Source of the DNA: Eledone cirrhosa
Lineage: Eukaryota
Length of the DNA: 64,000 nucleotides
Assembly: GCA_964016885.1 (NCBI GenBank)
Contig: OZ024751.1
Span: forward strand, 8,928,001 to 8,992,000
Reading direction: 5' to 3'
A model generated the notes under the pieces. That model saw only the letters and a list, made by a program, of their open reading frames with translations, had not been told where the DNA came from and ran no database searches. Of this stretch, positions 38,195-55,729 are shown one piece after another (within the stretch, counting starts at the first letter, position 1; every line of letters begins with the position of its first letter). Both the position numbers and the translations under genes were made by a program.

Positions 38195-41100
38195 TTAAAC
38201 ATATCTACACACGCACACGATAGCAATTAACAGTGCTGCGCTCGAATGTTGCTTTTTAGCCCAGCGAATGATCCCAAAATGTCTTGCACAGAGTTGGCAA
38301 CCAAAACATTCACTGGTATTAGCCGGCTGTGGTTGGAGTTCATGTAAGTGTGCATGTTTTGTTATCCGTCCTCCTGATTTACATTCTCTACCACATGCTT
38401 GGCAAGCATAATGAGTAGCATCTCCAACAGCAGCCTGGTAGTCAACCACTGGTCTTACTTTATGATTGTGAAGATGACTTTCGAGTCCAGCTTTGCTTAG
38501 GCAGAGTCTCCCACAGACACTGCATGTCAGCGCCATAGAAGGACCTTCGCTGTCTGGAAATGCAACAGCAATGCCCTTCCTCACATCCCGCTTTACTTTA
38601 TCGTATGCGATTCGAGATGCCACAAAGGCAACTTTCCCCTCATATACAGTTTTTCTCCATTTATTACGATCAGCAGCAACATCTTCCCATGTATCAGCAG
38701 AGATGTTAGCGTCTTTCAAAGAGGCTTTCAAGGAATCCTTATACCTCTTTTTTGGTTTATGTGGCGGTCGTTTTCATTTAACTAACTTTAATAAAAGAGT
38801 TGTTTTGGTATTCTAGAATCCTTCATTCTGGCAAGGTGACCACTCCAACGGAGTCGTTGTTTAATCACAAGAGCTTATATACTGTCGCACAGAGCTTTCC
38901 AAAATCTAAACATCACTGATGTGGTCCATCCAGTGAACGCCATACATCTGTTTGAGACACATCGGATGGAAACGCTCCAATTGCTTAAGGTGGTGACCCA
39001 GGTCTCGCAGGCATAAAGAAGAGAAGAGAGCACACATGCCTTGTTCACCTTTGTCTTCTTGCATATGTCTCGCCGACCTCAGAGTCGCCTTTCTAGCTTT
39101 CCGAAAGCATCACTTGCTTTCCTAATCCTGAGTGGGATTTCATTATCAAGGTTGTTGAATCGATTGACAGTGCTTCCCAGGTAGACAAACTGATCAACCA
39201 CTCCAAGTCTTTTACCATACACATACATATTTGGTTCAGTGTACTGCTTACCAGGGGCAGGTTGGTACATGACGACGGTTTTCTTCAGACTGACAGTCAA
39301 TCCTAGGGCAATGCAAGCGTCAGAAAATGCATTCAAAATGTGCTGCATATCACTCTCTGTGTGCGCTACAAGATCGCAATCATCTGCATACAAGAGGTCT
39401 CTTATGATTGATGTAAATACTTCTGTTTTTGCAGCAAAGCGCCTGATGTAAAATATGCTGCCTGAGGTTCGATATCGGGTGTAAACACCATGCTCGCAAT
39501 TCCTGAATGCAATATAGAAAACCATTGCAAAATATATGGCAAACAGGGTCGGTGCTGGAATATCCCCCTGTTTCACTCGATTTTTTACTGATATAGGCTC
39601 CGACATGTTACCTCCGACATTAACCCAAGCCTTCATGTCGTCATGGAAAGACCTAACTAAAGCAAGGAATTTATCAGGGCAACCAGGTTTCTGGAGAACC
39701 TTCCATAATACATTTCTGTTAACAGTATCGAAAGCATTTGTCAGATCGACAAAAACCTGATACAGATCCAAACCTTGTTCCATGCACTTCTCCTGGAGCT
39801 GTCTAGCTGAGAAGAACATATCAGTAGTGCCGCGTCCAGCACGAAAACCAGATAGACTTTCAGGAAAAACCCAATCTGCAATGTGTGTCAGCAGACGGTC
39901 CAGAAGCACCCTACATAAAACTTTCCCTACGAGAGAAAGCAATGATATACATTTGTAGTTCCCACAATCATTCCTGTTACCCTTTTCTTTGCACAAGACC
40001 ACCATTACTGCATCTCTCCAGTCCTCAGGTACGGAGTCATTAGCCAATATCCTGCCAAACAAAGATTGAAGATGTTGCAGGAATCTCTCACCACCATATT
40101 CTAGTAGCTCTGCATGTATGCCATCCATAACTGGAGACCTTCCACTGTTCAGCTACGAGATAACCACTACAACCTCAACAAGCGTCGGATGTTCTGCGAG
40201 AGCTACTTTCACAGGACTTTCTGGAATGAGATTGAAGAAATCTTCATTGACGACAGACGGTTGATTCAAAAGATCATCAAAGCGCTCTCGACACCTTCGT
40301 AGAATTATTTGTGAGTCACGAAGAAGTTCTTTGCCATCCTTGCTGTGAAGTGGTGTCACCAGAGAAGAAGACGGTCCATAAATTTCACGCAAGACAGTGT
40401 ACAACAGCTTTGTGTTATTGCAATCTGACGCAATTTGTATCTCATCAACCTTCTCACTCCACCACTGATCCTTCATCTGAGAAAGAGTCCGCCTAACACG
40501 TTATTTCACATCCTAGAGTTCCTTATGCAACATATTCTTCTCCTGTGGTTTTGCCGTCAAGTAGCGTGACAGAGCACGCCTCTTATCAGCCAACAAGTCT
40601 TCTATATGTTCATCATTCTCATTAAAGCAGTCTTGATATTTTCTCTGCACCAATCCCAGAACACGCCTGTCTACATCATAAACCGACTTTTTAAGGGTCG
40701 GCCAATCCTCACCAAGGTCTGCAACCTGCATCTCTTCTCGCAATGTCTTCTTCACATTTTTATCCCTAAAACGAGCAGCATTCAATCTTCTGGGCAGGGC
40801 AACACCAGGAGCCCGGATTCTACTTTAGTGATTAGTTTCACTTTTGCGCGTACCAGGCGGTGGTCCGTCCAGCACTCAGCTCCACGAAGAGCACAAACAC
40901 ACAGCACATTCCGTCTGTCACGCATCCTGACTAGGACGTTGTCCAAAAGATGCCATTCCTTAGATGCAGGATGTATCCACGTAGTCTTAAATTTGTTCTT
41001 TTATTGGAATATTGTGTTGGAAACACACATATCCAGCTCCTCACACATCTGCAGCAGGAGCATACCATTGTTGTTACACTTTCCCACCCATGCCTTCCGA

Positions 41101-41595
41101 TTAAATTCCATGTGTTAAAATCCCTACCCACTCTAGCATTAAAGTCACCAAGCGCGATGAATTTGTCTGCCTGAGGGATATTTCTTAAAACACCTTTCAA
41201 GGCATGGTAAAGGGACACTTTTTATTCATCGACATAATTCATAGTTGGAGCATACCACCCTCACCAGGGTCGCATATCTTCCTTTGTCCAGCGGTATTCT
41301 CATGGACAGAAGACGCTCACTAATCCCTGCTTGGAATTATTCTAATTTATTCACAAGGACAGTCTTAACAGCAAATGCTACCCATCCTCTCTTCTGGTCT
41401 CTTCCTTTCGAGTAGAATGTATATTCTCCACAAAATTCTGTAAGATGACCATCTCCAGCTAACCTCATCTCAGATAAAGCTACTATGTCAAGATCGTAAC
41501 GTCGAAGCTTCTTTGCAACAAGAGCGGTCCTTCGTTCAGGACGTTCCAAGGAATACCTGTAAAGCAGCGCCCGTACGTTCCAGCAGCCAAGACTA
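38195..41595 (-). mobile_element. Degenerate RTE (BovB-like) LINE: APE, RT and C-terminal C2H2 fingers
   Basis: ERRTALVAKKLRRYDLDIVALSEMR, LGDFNARVG, SGFRAGRGTTDM, FVDLTNAFDTVNR, LLYADDC, FVYLGS; CSVCGRLCLSKAGLESH. Confidence 0.92.
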
Positions 41596-43763
41596 AATGC
41601 CTTGTTTGACTCTATGGCTAGTTAATGGCATTACATTCCTGCTTCCGAAGAATGATGAGACAAACAATCCCAAAAATTACAGACCGATATCTTGCTTGAC
41701 CACAATGTATAAAATTTTAACATCAGTCCTAACTGAATATACATATGACCACCTGATAACAAATGACCTATTTCCCAATGAGCAGAAAGGCTGTAAACGA
41801 GGCTCATATGGCTGTAGGGATCAGCTTTTGGTTAACAAAATGATACTGGAAGATTGTCATAATAGACATAAAAATATATCAGTTGCTTGGATAGATTATA
41901 AAAAAGCATTCGATAGTTTGCCACACAGTTGGACTGAAAAATGTTTAGAGATTTTCAAAATATCTCCCGTTATCAGGAGGTTCTTGTCATTCAGTATGAA
42001 GACATGAAAACGAGACTCCTTTTGAATAGTGAAAAGAAATCACTGGAAGCTGGAGAAGTTAATATTAATTGTGGAATTTTTCAGGGTGACTCTTTATCAC
42101 CGCTTTTATTCTGCATCGCACTTATAGCATTAAGTAAAATGCTCAATGAAACAAAATATGGATATACAGTCTATGAAAAAACCATTAATCACTTGTTCCA
42201 CATGGATGACCTGAAACTATTTACAAAAAATGATGAACAATTGCAAGGGCTATTATCCACTGTGGAGCAGTTCAGTGATGACATTAAAATGGAGTTTGGA
42301 CTAGATAAATGCGCCAAAGCAACGTTCACCAGAGGAAAGCTGCTGAAAAGTTCAGACATTAATCTTGATCGGGGGAATGTGATAAGAGATCTTGATCAAG
42401 AGGAAACTTACAAATATCTAGGTGTTTGTGAAGGAGACGGAATCAAGCACTCGACAATAAACGAAAGGATAAGGAAGGAATTTTACCGTAGAGTAAGAGC
42501 AATCTTAAGAACGGAATTGAATGCAAGGAATAGGATCGATGCCATAAACACGCTTGCCATACCAGTAGTAACCTACAATTACAATGTCATCAACTGGTCA
42601 AGCACAGAGATCCGTAGACTCGATACAAAAATTTGAAAATTCTTAACTATGCACAGAATTCATCACCCTAAGGCAGATACAGATAGAATATATCTCCCTA
42701 TCAAAGAAGGAGGACGTGGCTTAATCCAGTTAGATATCGCGTTAAAAACTCCAACAATTGGATTATCTACATATCTAAGGGAATCACATGATTGGATGAT
42801 CAAACTCGTTTTGAAACACGAAAGCATCAGAAGATCATACTCCATTACAAAAGATACACAAAGATACAGTAATGGACGACAAATTTCAGAAGTCCCATTT
42901 ACTGCTGAAATGGAAAACACAGAAAAAGCAAAGTAGGTAAAAGTAAATGCAAAGAAAGAACTGCTACAGAAACTGGCTAAGAAATGGCAAGAAAAGCCTC
43001 AGTAAGGAAAATACCCAGAAAGAGCTAACAATCCTGACGTTGACAAAATTCTAACCCATCATGGGTGGCATCCTCTGGACTGAAATCGGAGACTGAAGGA
43101 CTGATCATATCAGCACAAGATCAGTGTCTGCCAACAAAAAATTACCAACCCAACATAATAAAAGATGGATGCAATCCATTATGCCGTATATGTAAAACAC
43201 AACCAGAGACCATTGATCATATAATTTCAATGTGCAGTCCTATACCTCCAAACGAAAACCTAAACAGGCTTTACAGAGCTTACACATTGGATAATGTGTA
43301 ACCATTTTGACCTGCCCCATCAAAAGAATTGGTGGGAGCCTCAACAACCTCCCATACTTGAAGATCACATCTCAATCATGTGGAACTTTAGCATCCAAAC
43401 AGACCGAAAAATAGATGCTAATAGACCTGATATAATACTGAAGGATTTTAAAAAGAGGGTATGCCTGCTAATTGATATGTCCGTTCCAATAGACAAGAAT
43501 GTATCTATAAAAACATTTGAAAAACTGAGCAAGTATAAGGAAACCCGCGTATAGGAGAAATACAAAAGATAGTGCTGATGGGAACTGCCCATATACTAAG
43601 GAAGATTCTGTCAATTAAGTACATCACAAGTATAAACACCTAAATATGCATGTGTGTGTATGTATGTACTTCCTTGAACATGGCGGACCTTGTTGTCTCT
43701 TGAGGTCACTGGTTGTGACTTGGTGATAACTCGTATGAACATAAAACAAGATAAATGCAAGTG
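41596..43763 (+). mobile_element. 5'-truncated R4/Dong-like non-LTR retrotransposon (RT plus restriction-like endonuclease)
   Basis: NYRPISCL, WIDYKKAFDSLPH, GIFQGDSLSPLLF, HMDDLKLF, CRIC..ETIDHIISMC, RPDIIL..LIDMSVP; ends at (TAA)n. Confidence 0.9.
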
Positions 43764-43842
43764 TAATAATAATAATAATAATTGTTTCTACTTTAGGCAC
43801 AAGGCCAGCAATTAACCAGTGTATTACAGGTACTTAATTTTC

Positions 43843-43871
<29 letters not shown>

Positions 43872-43873
<2 letters not shown>

Positions 43874-45038
43874 TTTCTTTATTAACCACAAGGGTTTACA
43901 TAAAGTAGACATTAAGGACAGTTCAGGACAATACAGTACGGTACAAATGGGCATTTCTGCGTGTAAAAAACAAAAACAGAGGATGTAACAAAAAAATAAC
44001 AATGAAAAATTGTCCAATAGGGGGGAGACTTCGGAGGGACATTTGTGGAGAAAGCCCAGTAAAAGGCCACAATGACCCTGACCACCAAGGCAAGTGCCCT
44101 CTTCCAGTTTTCCACCTTTAATTTACAGATATATACTCAGAGTAGGCCCATTCAGTCGGGCCTTACTTGCTTCTCTCACCTATCTTTCAACAAAATGCTG
44201 GGAAGAGAGCACTTCCCTCTCTACCCTGATTTTCCTTTTCAAATGAAATTTGAAAAAGTTAATCAGGGCATCACCGAAGAGGTAGGTGCTCGTCTTCAGC
44301 CCTTTAAAACGTGTCCACCATACTATCTCTTTCGCCATGGCCACCAGACAGAAAAAATCTGTCTGCCCTTCCCGGCTAAAGGAAAAGAGCGGGGCAATCC
44401 TCACGATGGACTCAGCTGATAGTTGTGGCGCTGCTGAGAAAGGATCCGAACAAGGGGATAACATAGATAATTTCAGGCCCATAACTCTGCTAAACACAGA
44501 GTTCAAGATTTTGGCCAAGGTGCTAGCAAAGAGGTTGGCGCTTGTCGTTGGTGGTCTGGTGGGAGAGGCGCAGACATGCGCCATTCCCGATAGATCCATC
44601 CACGACAACCTTCACCTCATGCGATACATCGTAGAGAGGGTAGATAGGGAACCCACTACGGTGGCATCGGCCGCATATGCTGACACGGATCTTCCACTTC
44701 CTAGTTCGCGCGGGATCCCCCTCAACGTCTCCAGTTTGTGCAGTAATGGCTCGAGAGTCAATACGTACAACAGAGATGAGAGGGGACATCCTTGGCGGAC
44801 CGAGCGCATGATGTTGAACGGTTCCGAACGGTGACCGTTCACTCTCACCACAGAGAAAATGTCGCTGTGCATGGCAGCGATCCAGCATCTGAAGACGTGC
44901 CCAAAGCCAGCCGCCCTCAGGACTAGGTAACGATGGTCGACCCTATCGAAAGCTTGTGGGTCCTTGATCTAAAGTGATCAAGGACCCACACCTGCCACGT
45001 TCCATAGCTACCCTCTCTACGATGTATCGCATGAGGTA
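43872..45038 (-). mobile_element. Rearranged Tx1/L1-clade LINE fragment in a (TAA)n tract
   Basis: Minus strand RT 45038-44660 (FDRVDHRY, VRQGCPLS, SAYA); inverted RT N-part 44335-44660 (NFRPITLLNTEFKILAK); C-terminus and UTR 44335-43872. Confidence 0.8.
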
Positions 45039-45916: not shown

Positions 45917-46069
45917 TACCTCATTTTACTAGTCTCAAGAACGCGTCTACACGACGTGAGAAAGAATCCCAAAAGGCGGAGGGGGAGATAGTCACGCGAT
46001 ATAACGGTCGAGAAACAGAGCTAAGCCTCTTATAACCACGAAGAAAATACCACGGAGGCGGAGGGGGTA

Positions 46070-46113
<44 letters not shown>

Positions 46114-46121
46114 TACATATA

Positions 46122-46816
46122 TATGGACAGACGGGACGTCGCCTGGCGGACCGAGTCACGGAGCACCTCCGGGATATTCGTCTCGGGGGCAGTTCCCCCA
46201 TCGCCCGCCACTTTGGTGGCCCTGGACATTCCGCACGCCATCTCACAGTCTATGGCCTACTCCAATGCCACGGAACACCCGCCAATCGCCTTACGGTCGA
46301 ACAACGAACTATCTTCATCTTACAGACCCATGCTCCCCCCGGCCTGAACTCCCCACCCTTATTCCTTTAGCCTTCGACCGCCCCCTCCCCCCACACTTAT
46401 CCCCCACTAACACCACTAACACACCCCTCCTTTTCACCGCCCACCCCACAACTAACAATACTAACACCTCCACTCCACCCCTCATCTGACCACCTTCACC
46501 AACTAACATACTAACATCCCTCCCCCCCTCCTTATCACACCCATCCACCCACCGGCACTAATATACACGCGCTCACACTAAACACACACCCTACTACCAC
46601 CACTAACCCTCACCCCACACCTCTCACCCCCACACCTCCATCCCACCACCCCGCAACTAACCTCACTAACACCCCCTAACCCCAAGCACACGAACACACG
46701 CACCCACTTACACCACCCACCCCACACGCAACTAACATCACTAACACCCCCCAACCCCACGCACACGTACCCACACACCCTCGTACACCACCAACTCTAC
46801 ACACCCTACCACCACT
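46122..46816 (+). mobile_element. Neptune-type PLE 3' fragment: GIY-YIG C-half plus C-rich repetitive UTR
   Basis: Frame not in the ORF track: YGQTGRRLADRVTEHLRDIR..PIARHF..GHS..LTVYGL..RLTVEQRTIFILQTHAPPGLN. Confidence 0.8.
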
Positions 46817-48483: not shown

Positions 48484-48517
<34 letters not shown>

Positions 48518-48780
48518 TTAGGTTTATTGGTTCACCACTGGATGAAATTGGTCATTCCGTATGGTCAATCTCGATGTAATATTATGGAGAGTACTCAACG
48601 TAATGCAGCTCACCCGTCTTTATTTGTGTAGTTGGTGGATTTTGTCTGTTATATTCCTTTGTTATATTTCGAAAACCAGATGATATCACCGGATTCATAC
48701 GGAACCCGGTCATTGAAATGATCATAGTATAATAAACCTTTCAAGGATTTACACAAGTCCAGCCTCCTGTTATTTTATTA

Positions 48781-48785
<5 letters not shown>
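48518..48785 (+). mobile_element. PLE pLTR family X with HHR remnant (48672-48730) and inverted 3' extension
   Basis: CAGATGA-..ccgg..-GAAA-tgatca-TA-gtat; 48518-48640 is the reverse complement of about 51112-51232. Confidence 0.6.
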
Positions 48786-48830
<45 letters not shown>

Positions 48831-48835
<5 letters not shown>

Positions 48836-49385
48836 ATACTTTGGGAGGGTCATGTTGCCAATAAGAAATACACGCACCAGTTGCTTTCACTTTATTTTAT
48901 TATAAATTAAATTTATAAATTTAGGAATTTATAAATTTCCGGTTGGTTGGTTGGTTCCACAACCAGACGATTGTTCATATATTGTCAAAGTTCTTTCGTC
49001 ACACATTCTGTGACCTCTTCAGTGACTAGGGATTATTTTCTGTTTTTGTGCCTCTCCTTTGTTCTGTCCTACGCCATCAAAAAGAAGATGGCGTAGGACA
49101 GGACAAAGGAGAGGCACAAAAACAAAGAAAATAATACCAAGTCACTGAAGAGGTCACAGAATGTGTGACGAAAGAACTTTGACAATATATGAACATCGTC
49201 TGGTTGTGGAACCAACCGGAAATTTATAAATTCCTAAATTTATAAATTTAATTCATAATAAATTGAAGTGAAAGCAACTGATGTGTGTGTTTCTTATTGG
49301 CAACATGACCCTCCCAAAGTATAACTATATCGGTTTCAACACACGTTTTCAGATAAAGAATCTTGCTAAACAAATTCAGAAACGA
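48831..49385. mobile_element. Second head-to-head inverted dimer of HHR element family A
   Basis: Arms meet at cctacgccatc-aaaaagaa-gatggcgtagg; HHRs near 48984-49026 (-) and 49140-49183 (+); arms slightly diverged; (TA)n flanks. Confidence 0.85.
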
Positions 49386-49407
49386 TTTATATATATATAT
49401 ATATATA

Positions 49408-51235
49408 TTAAAATGACAGGAGGCTGGACTAGTGTAATTCCTTAAAGGTTTGTTATGCTATAAACATTTCAATGACGGGGTTCAGTATGAAATCGGTGAC
49501 ATTATCAGGTATTCGAAATCTAACAAAGGAATATAATCCATGGGGCTGAAAAGGCAGAGACAAGAAGGCGGCCACACATTTAGCAGTTTCTATTCAGGTC
49601 GGCCGCCTTCAAGTGACGTCTACAAATTGTTCCTATGCCTTTCTGGTGAAGGGGCGTAAGCTTATAGTTTACTACTACTAGCCAGTCACGGACAGAGGCT
49701 AGCGGTGGGATCAGGTTTCATTGAAGTTGGTCAGAAGTCCTAAAAAGTGCCAAGAAATATATTTCTTCAAAAAACATATATATTTAACAAAACTATATAT
49801 AGTGGGTGCCTGTACAGTATATTTTTCATTGTAGGGTAAGAAATTACGATTAACGATTAGAAATGTAAAATTTATGTTTAGAATTAAAAGATGTCATTTA
49901 AGATGAGATTAGAAAAGTAAGATTTAGATTTAAAGTTGGGAGATTTAGTAAAAGAATTTACAGAATTTATGAAATGGCTAAGTGTATTATTGATAGTCTC
50001 GATAAAGTTTCAGGGTAGAATATAAAGTTAAGACTAAGCTCATGTGTGGATGTCAGTAACCAGCGACGTTGTGGACAACCAGCCTACCCGGGGCCCAATG
50101 GCGTGTCAACCCTTCCGAGTATTTTCGTCTACCGAAAGAAAGGGAAATATATTTTTCCGAGCACTCCATGGATGTTAAGTGTCTCAAGCGCCGGGATGCT
50201 GGTGAGACGCCCGCCACCGTCGGCTGATCATCGTGTATACCAAACGATTCTTAGTTATTCACACTGGTGGGGGATTTAGTTAACGGGCTAGTAGAAGGAG
50301 GCATGATAAAATTTAAAAGTTATGATTAAGCCTATAATTTAAAAGTACTGTTTGGTGCTCAATAACCGGTGGCACGGCGGATTCCAAGCCCTCTCGGGGC
50401 CCAAGGGTGTAACAGCCATTCCGAGTATTTTCGTATACCGAAAGAAGGGGAAACTTATTTTTCCAATCACTCTAGGAAGGCTGATCGACTCGAGCGCCTG
50501 GCGTGCAATCGGGAAAGCCGCCACATCAGTTGGATCATCGCGTGTACCAAACGATTATTAGTTATTCACACCCGTGATGTGAAGTTTAAAAGTGGCAAAA
50601 TCTGATGAAATGGGTATTTAGTCCCCTGTTAGCCCGGGTTATATGTATGATTCCTGAGTGGGTAAGGGGAGTGCTTAAAGATAAACAGATATAAAGGGTA
50701 CATAGATTAATATTCTAGGGTCGTGTGCTAGTTTTAGATAACAGATGAGTACAAGGATAAGTATATAAGGAGAGTAAAGCGAATACAAACATAAATAAAA
50801 ACATAAATAAAATGCAGTCATACCCAGGGTGGTAATTGTGGGAGTAAAAATGGAAGTAAATAAAAACATCGAAGAAATCAAAATACAGAAGAAATAAAAT
50901 GCAAATCACGGTGTAGCAAATAATCAATAGATAACTTTGTTGGAGAATACATGATTATAAATATAGATATTGAGGATGGAAGAGTTGGAGTGGTATCAGG
51001 TGATTCTTAGTGTAGGTTCTGTCATTGAAATGTTCATAGTATAATAAACCTTTAAGGAATTACACCAGTTCAGCCTCCTGTTATTTTATAATAATTAACT
51101 CTGTACTCGCGCCACCAACAACACAAACGATGACGGGTGAGTTGCATTACGTCGAGTGCTCTCTCTAATATTACATCGATGTTGACCATACGGAATGACC
51201 AGCTCTATCCAGTGGTGAACCAACAGACCTAAATG
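49408..51235 (-). mobile_element. Non-coding PLE 3' region (family X): pLTR/HHR at 49455-49512, long UTR, inverted pLTR at about 51020-51235
   Basis: Minus strand atac-CTGATAA-..-GAAA-tgttta-TA-gcat; pyrimidine-rich UTR on the minus strand; opposed pLTR copy at the 5' end. Confidence 0.55.
50055..50571 (-). ncRNA. Tandem pair of ~210-nt multibranch structured RNA motifs (50055-50264, 50361-50571)
   Basis: Conserved ggaaaaata..tttcc, ttctttcggta.acgaaaatactcggaa, ttgggcccc; stems retained through compensatory changes; G-U pairs favour the minus strand. Confidence 0.6.
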
Positions 51236-51246
51236 AGTATATTAAT

Positions 51247-51679
51247 ATACTAGCAGCAGTATCCAACGTTGCTTGGGTAGGTAAAATAATATCTGCTTTG
51301 ATGAAAAGGTGTTGATCTTAGCGACTGCTTCTCGAAGACTCATCTATGGCCACACACAGACCATGCGGGGGAGGGTGGTGATGACCTCTTTCACTGAAAA
51401 ACACAGGTGATTGACGAAGGGGCATGCTAGAGGAGGGAGTTTTGAATTTGAACGAAACCGGTGGCAAAATGTGGGATCTACAGCCGAAAATCTTATTTTT
51501 CGATACCTAGAAAAAGGTGACCCCGCTATCGATTTTTATCCGCAGAATGACCCTGGAATAAAAAAAAAAAAACGATACGCTGATATATAGAAAACGCTCC
51601 CCGATGACTAATCTATGGGCCTGTAAAGTAGTTTCGTGAAAATCGGTCGTAAGATGTAGGCCCCTATAGGTAATACACG

Positions 51680-52682: not shown

Positions 52683-52743
<61 letters not shown>

Positions 52744-52829
52744 GTTTTATATATATGTATTAATTTTATAGAATATTTTAGTATCGTGAGCGAGTAGAGG
52801 TTTAAAGGGATAAGCGATACATATAGTTA

Positions 52830-55508
52830 GTTGCCAAAATATGATGCATTTGTGCTCAATACTTGTGTCTACAGGGTTAAATATCGGAAGCGTTAATATT
52901 TAGTGGGCGAGAATATAAGCAGAGCGGTTACAAATGAAAGGATTACAAATGAGAATACAGACCGTTAGAACATGTTTATACAAAAGCACCTACATACGTT
53001 TCGCCCGAAAAGGGCTTCTCAAGGGCATACACATCTAGAGAGTGTTCAATACAGAACCCAGAAGGGGTTTTAAGATGATAATCACATCGAAGTTCATGCT
53101 TGATTCAAACAGACATGGTTGTTTGTATCACAGAGCTAGGTGAGTAACTCAAACCGGTGTTTGAATAAATGTCCCTGAATAGCTTATTATCTGTTCACAC
53201 GATTATTGTTTTCCACTACTATTTTATGGGTGCCACTTTACTTCTGTTTAGTCAGGCCAGATCTAAGAGGCATAGTTGGTGTACAGATGTTTAGTTATGC
53301 AACCTGCCCCCCGGTGCGTTATGGTTTGGTGTAGGGGGGCCCAGTTTATGGTGTTCAGGTCTCAACGTGGGTCCAATCATAGATTGACTGCTGTATTCTG
53401 TGTCTGCAGTTTATCACAGATTCTGCTCTGCTGTTGATGAGCTCTAGGCGTGCTCTTACTATATGGTAAAGTTCCATCAGACAGAGCTGACACTTCCTCT
53501 TGAAGTTGAACGGTGTGGCCTGCTGACAATTTCCCCGTATGGGGAGAAGCTGATGCTGGAGTCTTTCAATATTGTGATGTAGTTGGCGAGTGATGTGGAG
53601 TACCTTAGCTTCTTGTTTCTAAAAGAGTGGAGATGCGTTCGAAATCTAGATTTGAACGAGCCAGAGGTGGCCCCTATATAATATTTGATGCTATTATGGC
53701 TAGTTACAGTGCACCTATAAATAACATTGTCTGTCAGGCACCTTCCCCTGAGCGGACAGCTTCCCTGGTCTCGACAGTTGCAGTGTCGGCCGCGGTCGCT
53801 GCCGCTGCAGTGGCTCCTAGTGCCCGAAGTAAGACTATTACTATCACTACCTATCTTATTATCTACACCACCCTCGCTATCTCCGTAGTTAGTACTATTA
53901 TATCCTAGGGCGCGCGGGGTAGTACAATTATTACTCGGCGCGCCACGGCGCCTTCTGTTGCTACCTCGCGACCCGTACAGGTCACCAGCATATTCCCCTG
54001 TCTCACCGCCGTTATGGCGGGAGCTGCCACCAATACTGTGGTGCTGCTAGGGAAACGTTAAGGCTATTAGGGTTGTTTTCAGGTCTAGACCTATCGCTGC
54101 CATGGTGCCATTTTTTGGTGAGTTTACTGTAATTAGTTATCCCTATGACGTCTGCTAAGTAAGGAGGAGTGGAGAAGGATATTTTAATATTATTCTTATT
54201 GAGGATGTTCCTGTACTTATGGTTGGGTGGGAAGTTCTTCTCTAGGCTTCGAAGAATATCCTAGGTAAGTTAGAGGCCACACTCCAAGAGTGGGGAGGAT
54301 GGAACCATAGGACATTACGTTGGCGGTTTCGCGCCGCCGTGGGCTTATTACAGGTCATGTTGGTTAGGTAACCGTTCTTATTGTTGCTACTGTGCTGCAC
54401 CCTACTGCGCATCCTCTTCGCTTTATGCTCGGGTGCACTCGCCTTCCTTGTGTTACGTTTACGTGTAGCTAACCGCCTTTTGGAGGGTGTAGGTAATAGT
54501 CCAGCGCTATTGTTAATCCTATAGGCAGGGAATAATTCTAGTAGGTAACAGCAGCTACCGTTGCCCATATCATGACCCATATTATGCGGTAGGCCTTCAA
54601 CAACTCCACACACGTAGTTAACGCTACAGCCGTGTTTCTTAGTGCGATTCTCTATACTATAATTGTTGACTCTATCATGACCGCTGCGTATTTGGTTATA
54701 GGTATGGCTTACTATAACATTAGTCCTATGATGGGGGTGGTTTCTAGAGTCTGCGATATGGAGGTAGAAGATTCTTCGGTTATATCCGGCATCCACCAAG
54801 GCTTTATTGTAGTAGTCAGCCGCTTGGTTGAAGATATCCTCGTTGGCAGAAAGCCTCGAGATCCTATGGGATATGCTATATACTATGGAGTTGAGATTAG
54901 ACTTAGGGTGGTTGGATGCATAATTAATATATGATAGAATCTCGCCGGGATTATGGCATGGCTTGTACAGGCCCGTACCCAACTCCAGGGTCACGTCTAG
55001 GAAGTTGACTATCTGGTGGTTGAGGTCTATAGTTACGGAGAGGCCGTATGATTTGAAGAACCTGTGTATGTGCTTGTTAAGGTTATCTATCCTGCGGGGC
55101 CTATGGTTCCTAACGGTAAATAGGGTGTCGTCTCTATATACACCTATATGTAGGACCGGGATCTCGTCCCTAAGTCTATGGAGGAGGTATATTCCAAACA
55201 GGTCGGTCGCTTGCGCCGAGTCACTAGACCCCACAATGATATCGAAGTTATCAGGACTGTTGGTTCCGGTCCAATGGGAACCCTCGAACTGGATAATAGT
55301 TCTGCGCGCTGCTAGTACTATATATATATATCTTTTTAGTGAGGTTGGTGTTAGATCCAGCTAAAATAAGGGCCTTGTTTAAGAGTATGGTGGAGATAGA
55401 GGCATAGTAGATGTCTATGTCAAACTGGATGAACTTTTGAGCTGTCTTATCGGGCAACTCGGTGAACCAATTAATGACCTTGTTGGTGTTATTCCAGAGA
55501 TTATGTGG
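52830..55508 (-). mobile_element. 5'-truncated Naiad-type PLE: RT, GIY-YIG and 3' HHR
   Basis: FIQFDIDIYYASIS, MGSSDSAQ, GVYRDDTL, VNFLDVTL, RNVLWFHPP; HCNCRDQGSCPLRGRCLTDNVIY..LYIG..FKSRFRTHLHSF; CQLCLME..INSRAE..CRH. Confidence 0.92.
52986..53026 (-). ncRNA. Minimal type I hammerhead ribozyme with U3-A8 core variant
   Basis: gccc-TTGAGAA-gccc ttttc gggc-GAAA-cgtatg-TA-ggtgc, downstream of the Naiad ORF on the same strand. Confidence 0.65.
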
Positions 55509-55516
55509 TTAATAAG

Positions 55517-55729
55517 CATTTTGAAAGCCATAGCTGTGAATAACACTGGCAGCCAACGCCACCAAGCGGTGTCCTAATTTTAATCCGGCAGTTGCAAGAG
55601 CAGGAAGGATCGTCCGGACGAGAACCAGTTGTGTTCGAAATGCATCGACAATTGTCCACCTTGCTTCTGCCGAACACTGCTTGTGGCGTTGGCTGCTAGA
55701 GTTATTCATATTTTTAGCTTTCTAAATGC
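55517..55729. repeat. ~210-bp fold-back element (MITE or long RNA hairpin)
   Basis: tgaataacactggcagccaacgccaccaagcggtgt / acactgcttgtggcgttggctgctagagttattca plus inner cggcag/ctgccg and gcaag/cttgc. Confidence 0.75.

Follow-up and report, generated by a model that had tools for sequence, protein, structure and literature searches.

The window analyzed here, a stretch of 64,000 nucleotides from Eledone cirrhosa, carries on its minus strand two copies of a hairpin unit whose host is a non-autonomous, non-coding Penelope-like element (PLE) of 2-2.8 kb with a hammerhead pLTR and TA targets. The main arm of this element (49409-51020, minus strand) is colinear with dozens of genomic copies and exhibits neither an open reading frame (ORF) nor PLE protein similarity. 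The copy is truncated 5′ at 51020, where an inverted pLTR arm (51021-51249, plus strand; inverted repeats I1 and I16) begins and extends to the second of two recurrent 3′ end points. The portion of the 3′ pLTR that is present (49409-49613, minus strand) stops at the first of these points and is followed by (TA)n. Most copies, 19 of 29, stop at one of the two points (8 and 11), and (TA)n adjoins the end points. A full unit in the subfamily of the window has the arrangement pLTR-body-pLTR and spans approximately 2.0 kb, and units range from 2.0 to 2.8 kb across elements; at locus L032, direct head-to-tail pLTRs lie 2005 nt apart.

Four features expected of PLEs were found in the element. These are pLTRs in partial tandem with a frequent inverted 5′ arm (L032 and the window), a type I hammerhead in the pLTR (at the sequence level, with core and stems in the aligned copies), two 3′ end points with microsatellite targets, and the absence of any RT or endonuclease ORF. 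The pLTRs, inverted 5′ arm, tail and (TA)n correspond to the PLE insertion architecture given in the parts of two reports covered here (PMC8557442, Figure 2 legend; PMC11167929). Insertions are mostly truncated single ones, not arrays. The minimal type I hammerhead motif (49455-49512, minus strand), read from the alignment of copies, lies on the same strand as the hairpin units, and its stem II covaries, such that its sequence differs between old and young subfamilies while pairing is kept. The window copy has CUGAUAA in place of the CUGAUGA of other copies, which is one change in the catalytic core, and it shows no fold (z +1.3); judged from these letters it is likely inactive. The Rfam scan did not call the pLTR hammerhead.

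Among the 30 best pLTR matches (L093-L122), 23 are solo pLTRs with 5′ ends within 25 nt, located at the start of a GC-rich hairpin approximately 100 nt before the hammerhead core. These clustered ends may mark a transcription start with internal priming, although the sample is biased in that the query itself started near that 5′ point. In old and young subfamilies alike, the second 3′ end point is followed by a small hairpin (GCUC/GAGC) whose loop varies (L032:7070-7100; L140:3170-3200).

The first-pass annotation had placed the units in the UTR of a PLE. The assignment to a PLE-type host holds, but the element is non-coding and distinct from the Neptune-type PLE at approximately 52.7-55.7 kb. 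Its view that the units do not encode protein is in agreement with stops in frame 1, with the absence of a conserved ORF in the element, and with the lack of any tblastn match to PLE proteins. A protein repeat was likewise rejected because the 129-codon AUG frame found in the young majority is interrupted in the old majority. No autonomous partner was seen among 30 pLTR loci, no DNA similarity of the pLTR or the motif to one abundant Penelope family was found (16 loci besides the seed locus), and no link was seen to the neighboring Neptune-type PLE, which is a separate insertion.

Other mobile sequences surround the element. An imperfect palindrome of approximately 890 nt (48649-49536, centered near 49083) mirrors the pLTR and its flank, and a further pLTR piece lies at 48501-48638. 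The broken Neptune-type PLE (approximately 52740-55700, minus strand) retains RT and GIY-YIG pieces and has its own hammerhead-like motif near the 3′ end. A GIY-YIG endonuclease fragment of another PLE family (46005-46370, plus strand) is followed by C-rich 75-nt repeats, and RT gene fragments of several non-LTR retrotransposons occupy 40000-44950. Elsewhere in the genome, the abundant Penelope family just mentioned, of Penelope/Poseidon type and unrelated to the present pLTR (L135-L139; G000 C1, C3, C13 and C2), yields 11516 first-look candidates with frames of up to 923 codons.

Two Units and Their Predicted Fold

Unit A (50571-50350) and unit B (50264-50044) both lie on the minus strand, 306 bases apart. 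They are 73% identical (153 nt ungapped), with 176 of 271 columns invariant, and so they are the two diverged copies that had been recognized at the outset. The long irregular hairpin of unit A (50350-50552, subfamily A2) folds in the window as it does in the family and scores 123.9 bits with a covariance model built from the same family; unit B, a second hairpin copy (50044-50245, subfamily B2), scores 98.9 bits with a covariance model of that same family. An A-rich leader precedes unit A (50554-50571). It is kept in older subfamilies, with 84% mean identity among five of these groups, and has been replaced in the youngest, being absent from A5 and A6 copies. The alignment of copies places a corresponding leader before unit B (50247-50264). 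The conserved apex of unit A (50421-50476), near-invariant across 13 subfamily majorities, consists of CC, a 2-nt bulge and a GAGUG/UACUC helix, together with hairpins H1 (50464-50449) and H2 (50443-50429). Its H1 loop is AAUAAG, where most copies have AAUAAA. The apex of unit B (50115-50171) has H1 at 50158-50143 and H2 at 50137-50123, and private mutations weaken its central helix, which gives rise to the alternative fold drawn in the first-pass annotation. Against shuffles the two units fold at z -2.13 (A) and -1.97 (B), compared with -0.96 and -0.74 for the plus strand.

When folded singly, all 13 subfamily majorities give the same apex. Its order is CC, a 2-nt bulge, GAGUG paired with UACUC, and GG; then a 3-nt linker, H1 (GGAAA/UUUCC), a 5-nt pyrimidine linker, H2 and a 1-nt linker. 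Below the apex, every majority has a long irregular stem of up to approximately 200 nt in all, and the arms of subfamily C, a group with 54-61% identity to the rest, pair as a perfect 21-bp helix. In the seven groups for which pair probabilities were predicted, these reach 0.8-0.99 for the central helix and H1; for H2 they are 0.84-0.93 in six groups and 0.41 in O. The H1 spacer is 6 or 7 nt. The hexamer AAUAAA occurs in the H1 region of 11 of the 13 majorities; the two without it are C and the decaying B3.

Much of the earlier reading agrees with these subfamily folds, including the long basal stem, the pairings gc(t/c)ga/ttgggc, cccgg/ccggg and tggcgg/ccgccg, and the hairpins ggaaa/tttcc and tttcg/cgaaa. 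Its four-hairpin topping is replaced by a three-way junction with two short hairpins. The first arm had been drawn from sequences peculiar to the window copies, since gagacact occurs in one of 30 B units and cgatca/tgattg in one of 24 A units, each time the copy in the window. What was taken for a fourth arm belongs to the long stem as its 3′ strand, and the stretch proposed to be micro-inverted between the copies changed instead through stepwise point substitutions. Similarly, "atactcggaa" is not a linker but a paired strand of the central helix (probability 0.8-0.99 in all seven groups folded).

Some folding measures are less decisive. RNAalifold applied to raw decayed copies returned a different weak fold in one run and only the central helix plus H1 in another. 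In the youngest copies, antisense and sense folds gave z values of -3.87 versus -2.13 and of -2.27 versus -1.70, and an excess of G.U over A.C was found at p 0.07 on the sense-derived structure and was absent otherwise. The strand is set mainly by the hammerhead and is weakly resolved by the fold.

Searches for a known identity were negative within their scope. Rfam, scanned at E values up to 5 or 10 and with well-preserved copies included, returned no family, only sub-threshold chance matches or none, and ARAGORN found no genes in eight loci. The earlier failure to place the motif among tRNA, SECIS, SRP and small ribozymes is thus matched by Rfam and ARAGORN, and SRP/Alu RNA and known IRES elements were rejected on the same grounds. 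No match to the motif pattern was found in viral and metagenome contigs, collections that are poor in animal DNA. An origin from U3 was rejected because host U3 alignment scores of 16-21 compare with shuffled means of 19-20, and box-like words of U3 and box C/D snoRNA are absent in C and P. A U3/U6-like promoter was rejected because there is no likeness to the U3 or U6 upstream regions of this genome. In H/ACA RNAs an ACA lies three nt from the hairpin's 3′ end, and the CR4/5 domain of telomerase RNA has a conserved P6.1-type loop. Here, the ACA position is not kept in S, A or B1 and the H2 loop varies by group, and both identities were set aside. As a separate observation, host U3 genes (L214-L231) have a TATA-like element approximately 30 nt upstream, as in U6 genes, and U6 on C19 forms a tandem array with a period of approximately 1.8 kb.

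No published description of the motif was found in the literature searched, a search that lay outside Repbase, Dfam and most subscription journals; a repeat library may hold the element already, without noting its structure. The proposal of an undescribed structured RNA in a retroelement gains strength, given that no Rfam family matches, that the structure is kept in 13 subfamilies, and that a protein repeat is refuted. The predicted forked RNA of approximately 60 bases is a candidate family absent from Rfam and known from one genome.

Subfamily History and Retention of the Fold

A DNA search of the same genome, in which 40 of 745 candidates were scored, yielded 63 matches, with copies colinear well past the motif. 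An exact 25-nt core has 789 genomic matches, whereas the reversed control has none. The first 30 pattern matches, taken by position on one contig, led to younger subfamilies that similarity searches had missed. Units were sorted into C, P, O, S, A1-A6 and B1-B3, of which A4 and A5 are mixed groups, A3-A5 and B3 are built on 3-7 copies, and the P majority omits four of 25 loci. Copies diverge from the majority of their group by a mean of 11% in C, 9-10% in O and S, 5% in A2 and B2, and 3.4% in A6. The age order of subfamilies relies on these values and on midpoint-rooted trees without an outgroup; nine truncated or rearranged units and duplicates were removed before the first of these trees was built.

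Old elements have two units, one of the O or older form and one of C. The C unit is partly deleted in P, and three S loci have one unit each. In the tree, A and B derive from S. B then decays in A3-A5, and A6 elements have a fresh pair 502-514 nt apart and approximately 90% alike, six of these loci having been chosen for paired matches. The basal stem and leader were swapped out in A5 and A6. Every subfamily examined keeps at least one unit, in searches that were seeded on the motif and that motif-free subfamilies would escape. We read this series as three tandem duplications of the unit, with the number never falling below one.

Three further observations concern individual loci. Five near-identical rearranged two-unit segments form a tandem array with a period of approximately 6 kb (L154-L156; G000 C4:77.58-77.61 Mb). 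Old subfamilies have CCCTAACC-like words upstream of the pLTR (L140:5470-5560, L142:5715-5780) that are eroded in younger ones and that resemble the reverse telomeric repeat. Degenerate telomere-like repeats adjoin L002 and L028.

Conservation is concentrated in the apex. Between A2 and A6, the 56-nt apex is 96% identical while the arms are 43% identical; the corresponding values are 91% and 37% for O versus A6, and 71% and 31% for C. For two A6 elements of approximately 2.8 kb, alignment to the A2/B2 majority is confined to the pLTR and its tail and to the apex or its immediate border. Between O and A2/B2 the whole body is still approximately 75% alike, and the contrast of apex and body thus appears only over the longer path.

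The arms change sequence but retain their pairing. We placed the observed substitutions at random, matched by base, and compared folding energies. The arms hold their energy despite 30-54 substitutions, and 33 of 34 comparisons, which share lineages and are not independent, fall on the stable side. No random placement did as well for O to C and S to C (0/400 each) or for P to C, A2 to P, A2 to A4, A2 to A5, S to A5 and A6 to C (0/200 each). Only B3, the spare copy in decay, departs from this pattern (z +1.76), and the test is weak for close pairs (z -0.15 to -1.9). H2 gives the clearest individual steps, with G-C passing through G.U to A-U at one place and A-U through U.U to U-A elsewhere, such that three different sequences share one fold.

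In real copies, the outcome varies with the set of copies sampled. Among 24 real copies from twelve groups, 87.9% of cells are paired, 24 cells carry double changes and covariation is 0.170, each value reached in none of 500 shuffles. These copies exceed all 500 shuffles on three of five measures and lie far above slid controls, although they were chosen as closest to their majority and such shuffles can be beaten through relatedness alone. Pairs with a double change are no more numerous than in shuffles (175/500). In 28 copies of seven older groups, pair counts likewise do not exceed shuffles (107/500 and 163/500). The central helix and H1 are invariant, and hence they give no covariation signal.

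Mutations private to individual copies, acquired after insertion, keep 43% of the 913 pairs they touch and strike paired and unpaired sites alike (0.076 versus 0.079), and in five of ten tests of pair retention the result fell short of significance. The genomic copies are thus decaying neutrally, with selection having acted in the copying lineage. No scars of ADAR editing were found, in that A-to-G changes are not above T-to-C changes (124/4577 versus 196/5450), and the hairpin is unmarked as an edited duplex. The motif is a real, selected and undescribed structured motif of a non-autonomous PLE lineage.

Candidate Roles of the Conserved Apex

Stems, linkers and loops of the apex are invariant together on a stem that merely pairs, and this favors a docking domain for a host factor or for the helper enzyme. 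We propose, with a probability of about one half, that the units serve as a protein-docking domain needed in cis for mobilization by a helper Penelope-type reverse transcriptase. Transcription would proceed on the hammerhead strand from the pLTR start. Linker lengths predict stacking in three-way junctions, and with linkers of 3, 5 and 1 nt the expected arrangement has H2 stacked on the central helix and H1 drawn towards H2, so that the apex would fold in vivo as a compact junction. It would then bind a host factor that acts in export, stability or ribosome docking, in the way that the Alu domain uses SRP9/14, rather than mimic the RNA of the helper. The helper enzyme would prime inside the pLTR tail, and two copies would raise avidity, such that duplications might be selected repeatedly although one copy would suffice. 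Against docking, the analysis found neither a binding partner nor a transcript nor a helper element, and the motif lies at least 750 nt from the priming region, whereas the PLE characterized in vitro binds RNA near the priming site according to the part of that report covered (PMC11167929). A translation role as an IRES, suggested in the first-pass annotation, is unlikely because no ORF follows that could be translated.

The main rival, to which we assign a small chance of being correct, holds that the apex controls 3′-end processing, with AAUAAA in the H1 loop and the fold tuning cleavage and polyadenylation against read-through to the second pLTR. The prevalence of the hexamer among the majorities is in keeping with such control, and for the many insertions that are solo pLTRs shorter transcripts would suffice. 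Nevertheless, conservation covers the entire 56-nt apex and not only the hexamer, and C keeps the fold without AAUAAA. Transcript ends at this position would also block full-length copies, which are common.

Alternatively, the apex may act as DNA, either as a cluster of transcription-factor sites or internal enhancer, or through a fold in single-stranded cDNA. The GGAAA..TTTCC palindromes presumably resemble Rel/ETS/STAT sites, enhancers typically show repeated duplication, and both the invariance of stems without covariation and the equally good antisense folds of young copies would be expected of such a role. We consider it unlikely, since pairing stays while the arms alter their sequence, H2 preserves one fold with three sequences, and the H1 spacer is not fixed in length (6 or 7 nt). 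The upstream regions of U3 and U6 in this genome offer no likeness either.

It is quite unlikely that the unit is a captured host ncRNA of an undescribed family that was kept for its RNP, a scenario compatible with docking. PLEs can carry host genes with introns, according to the part of PMC8557442 covered, and a closed basal stem and a size of approximately 210 nt would suit an independent RNA. However, the units inspected lie in the element or in its truncated pieces, similarity to host U3 is not above shuffles and Rfam offers no match, words resembling C/D or ACA boxes are not retained from one subfamily to another, and the basal stem and leader could be replaced in A5 and A6. A new self-cleaving or ligating ribozyme is very unlikely. 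Retroelements often carry ribozymes, the junction is compact with invariant linkers, and the missing Rfam family leaves room for a new class, but the element is already equipped with a hammerhead, the apex contains none of the hammerhead core words, and the catalytic role suggested earlier gains no support from insertion ends, because the 5′ ends of 29 copies are scattered without clustering in the motif. Finally, a neutral duplicated stretch that folds through its GC-richness would fit the weak folding of single copies (z approximately -1 to -2.7) and the 28 older copies that are not above shuffles, but it is largely refuted, and extremely improbable, given the conservation of the apex against full turnover of the body, the arm tests and the decay of the redundant copy.

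Relation to Known Elements and Implications

The element combines traits of several known systems. In architecture it resembles non-autonomous PLEs such as MRC1 of Chlamydomonas, which has pLTRs, head-to-tail copies, an inverted 5′ arm, a two-end tail, (TA)n targets and no enzyme of its own, although the part of the report covered mentions no internal conserved RNA domain in MRC1-type PLEs, and three short motifs of our element are absent from one of its supplementary text files (PMC8557442). Non-LTR retrozymes are also non-coding, carry a type I hammerhead and are proposed to be mobilized by PLEs, but the passages covered describe units of 150-450 bp in tandem arrays, as opposed to 2.0-2.8 kb here (PMC7229834; 10.64898/2026.07.22.740005). 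The present element differs further in its minimal PLE-type hammerhead, its mostly truncated single insertions and its second conserved structure. Identity with metazoan non-LTR retrozymes was rejected, as the element does not consist of short units in tandem arrays. The PAc Poseidon PLE of green anole resembles it in having two internal priming sites past the hammerhead and AT-rich targets, but PAc is autonomous and, in the part of the study covered, the RNA region bound by its protein adjoins the priming site, no more than 172 nt from the ORF start (PMC11167929).

Two structured domains of other mobile elements offer functional parallels. The Alu domain is likewise a small structured domain needed in cis by a non-autonomous retroelement, and with its 46 nt it is necessary for retrotransposition, according to the part of the source covered (10.1101/2024.12.16.628748). 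Our element differs from Alu in its other class of helper and in showing no SRP match in Rfam, no known host RNA of origin and, by eye, no Pol III boxes. Dimeric Alu has its domain twice, like the two units here. The CTE, as described in the portions of PMC4338338 covered, is an extended hairpin with strong primary-sequence conservation that is duplicated in a mobile element, and in a virus this loop was probably doubled to improve function. However, Nxf1 binds a conserved internal loop of the CTE, as opposed to the apical three-way junction found here, and the same portions report no CTE homologue among the invertebrates searched (PMC4338338).

The choice of RNA by PLE enzymes, and the borrowing of these enzymes by non-coding elements, have been little explored, and the literature covered includes one PLE studied in vitro, in a report covered in part (PMC11167929). 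If the docking reading is correct, a more tentative extension, which we regard as having a modest chance of being right, is that this would be the first dedicated RNA domain that lets a non-coding PLE capture a helper reverse transcriptase, an equivalent of the Alu domain with a new RNA fold. PLEs are the retroelement class sister to telomerase. The apex might possibly be bound by the RT itself, like TERT on the three-way junction of telomerase RNA, and have been re-duplicated under selection three times. The evolutionary series narrows an element of 2-2.8 kb to two retained modules, the hammerhead pLTR and the 56-nt junction. It also supplies controls, in the form of compensatory variants that arose naturally and a copy in decay, so that the cis requirements of PLE trans-mobilization become directly testable.
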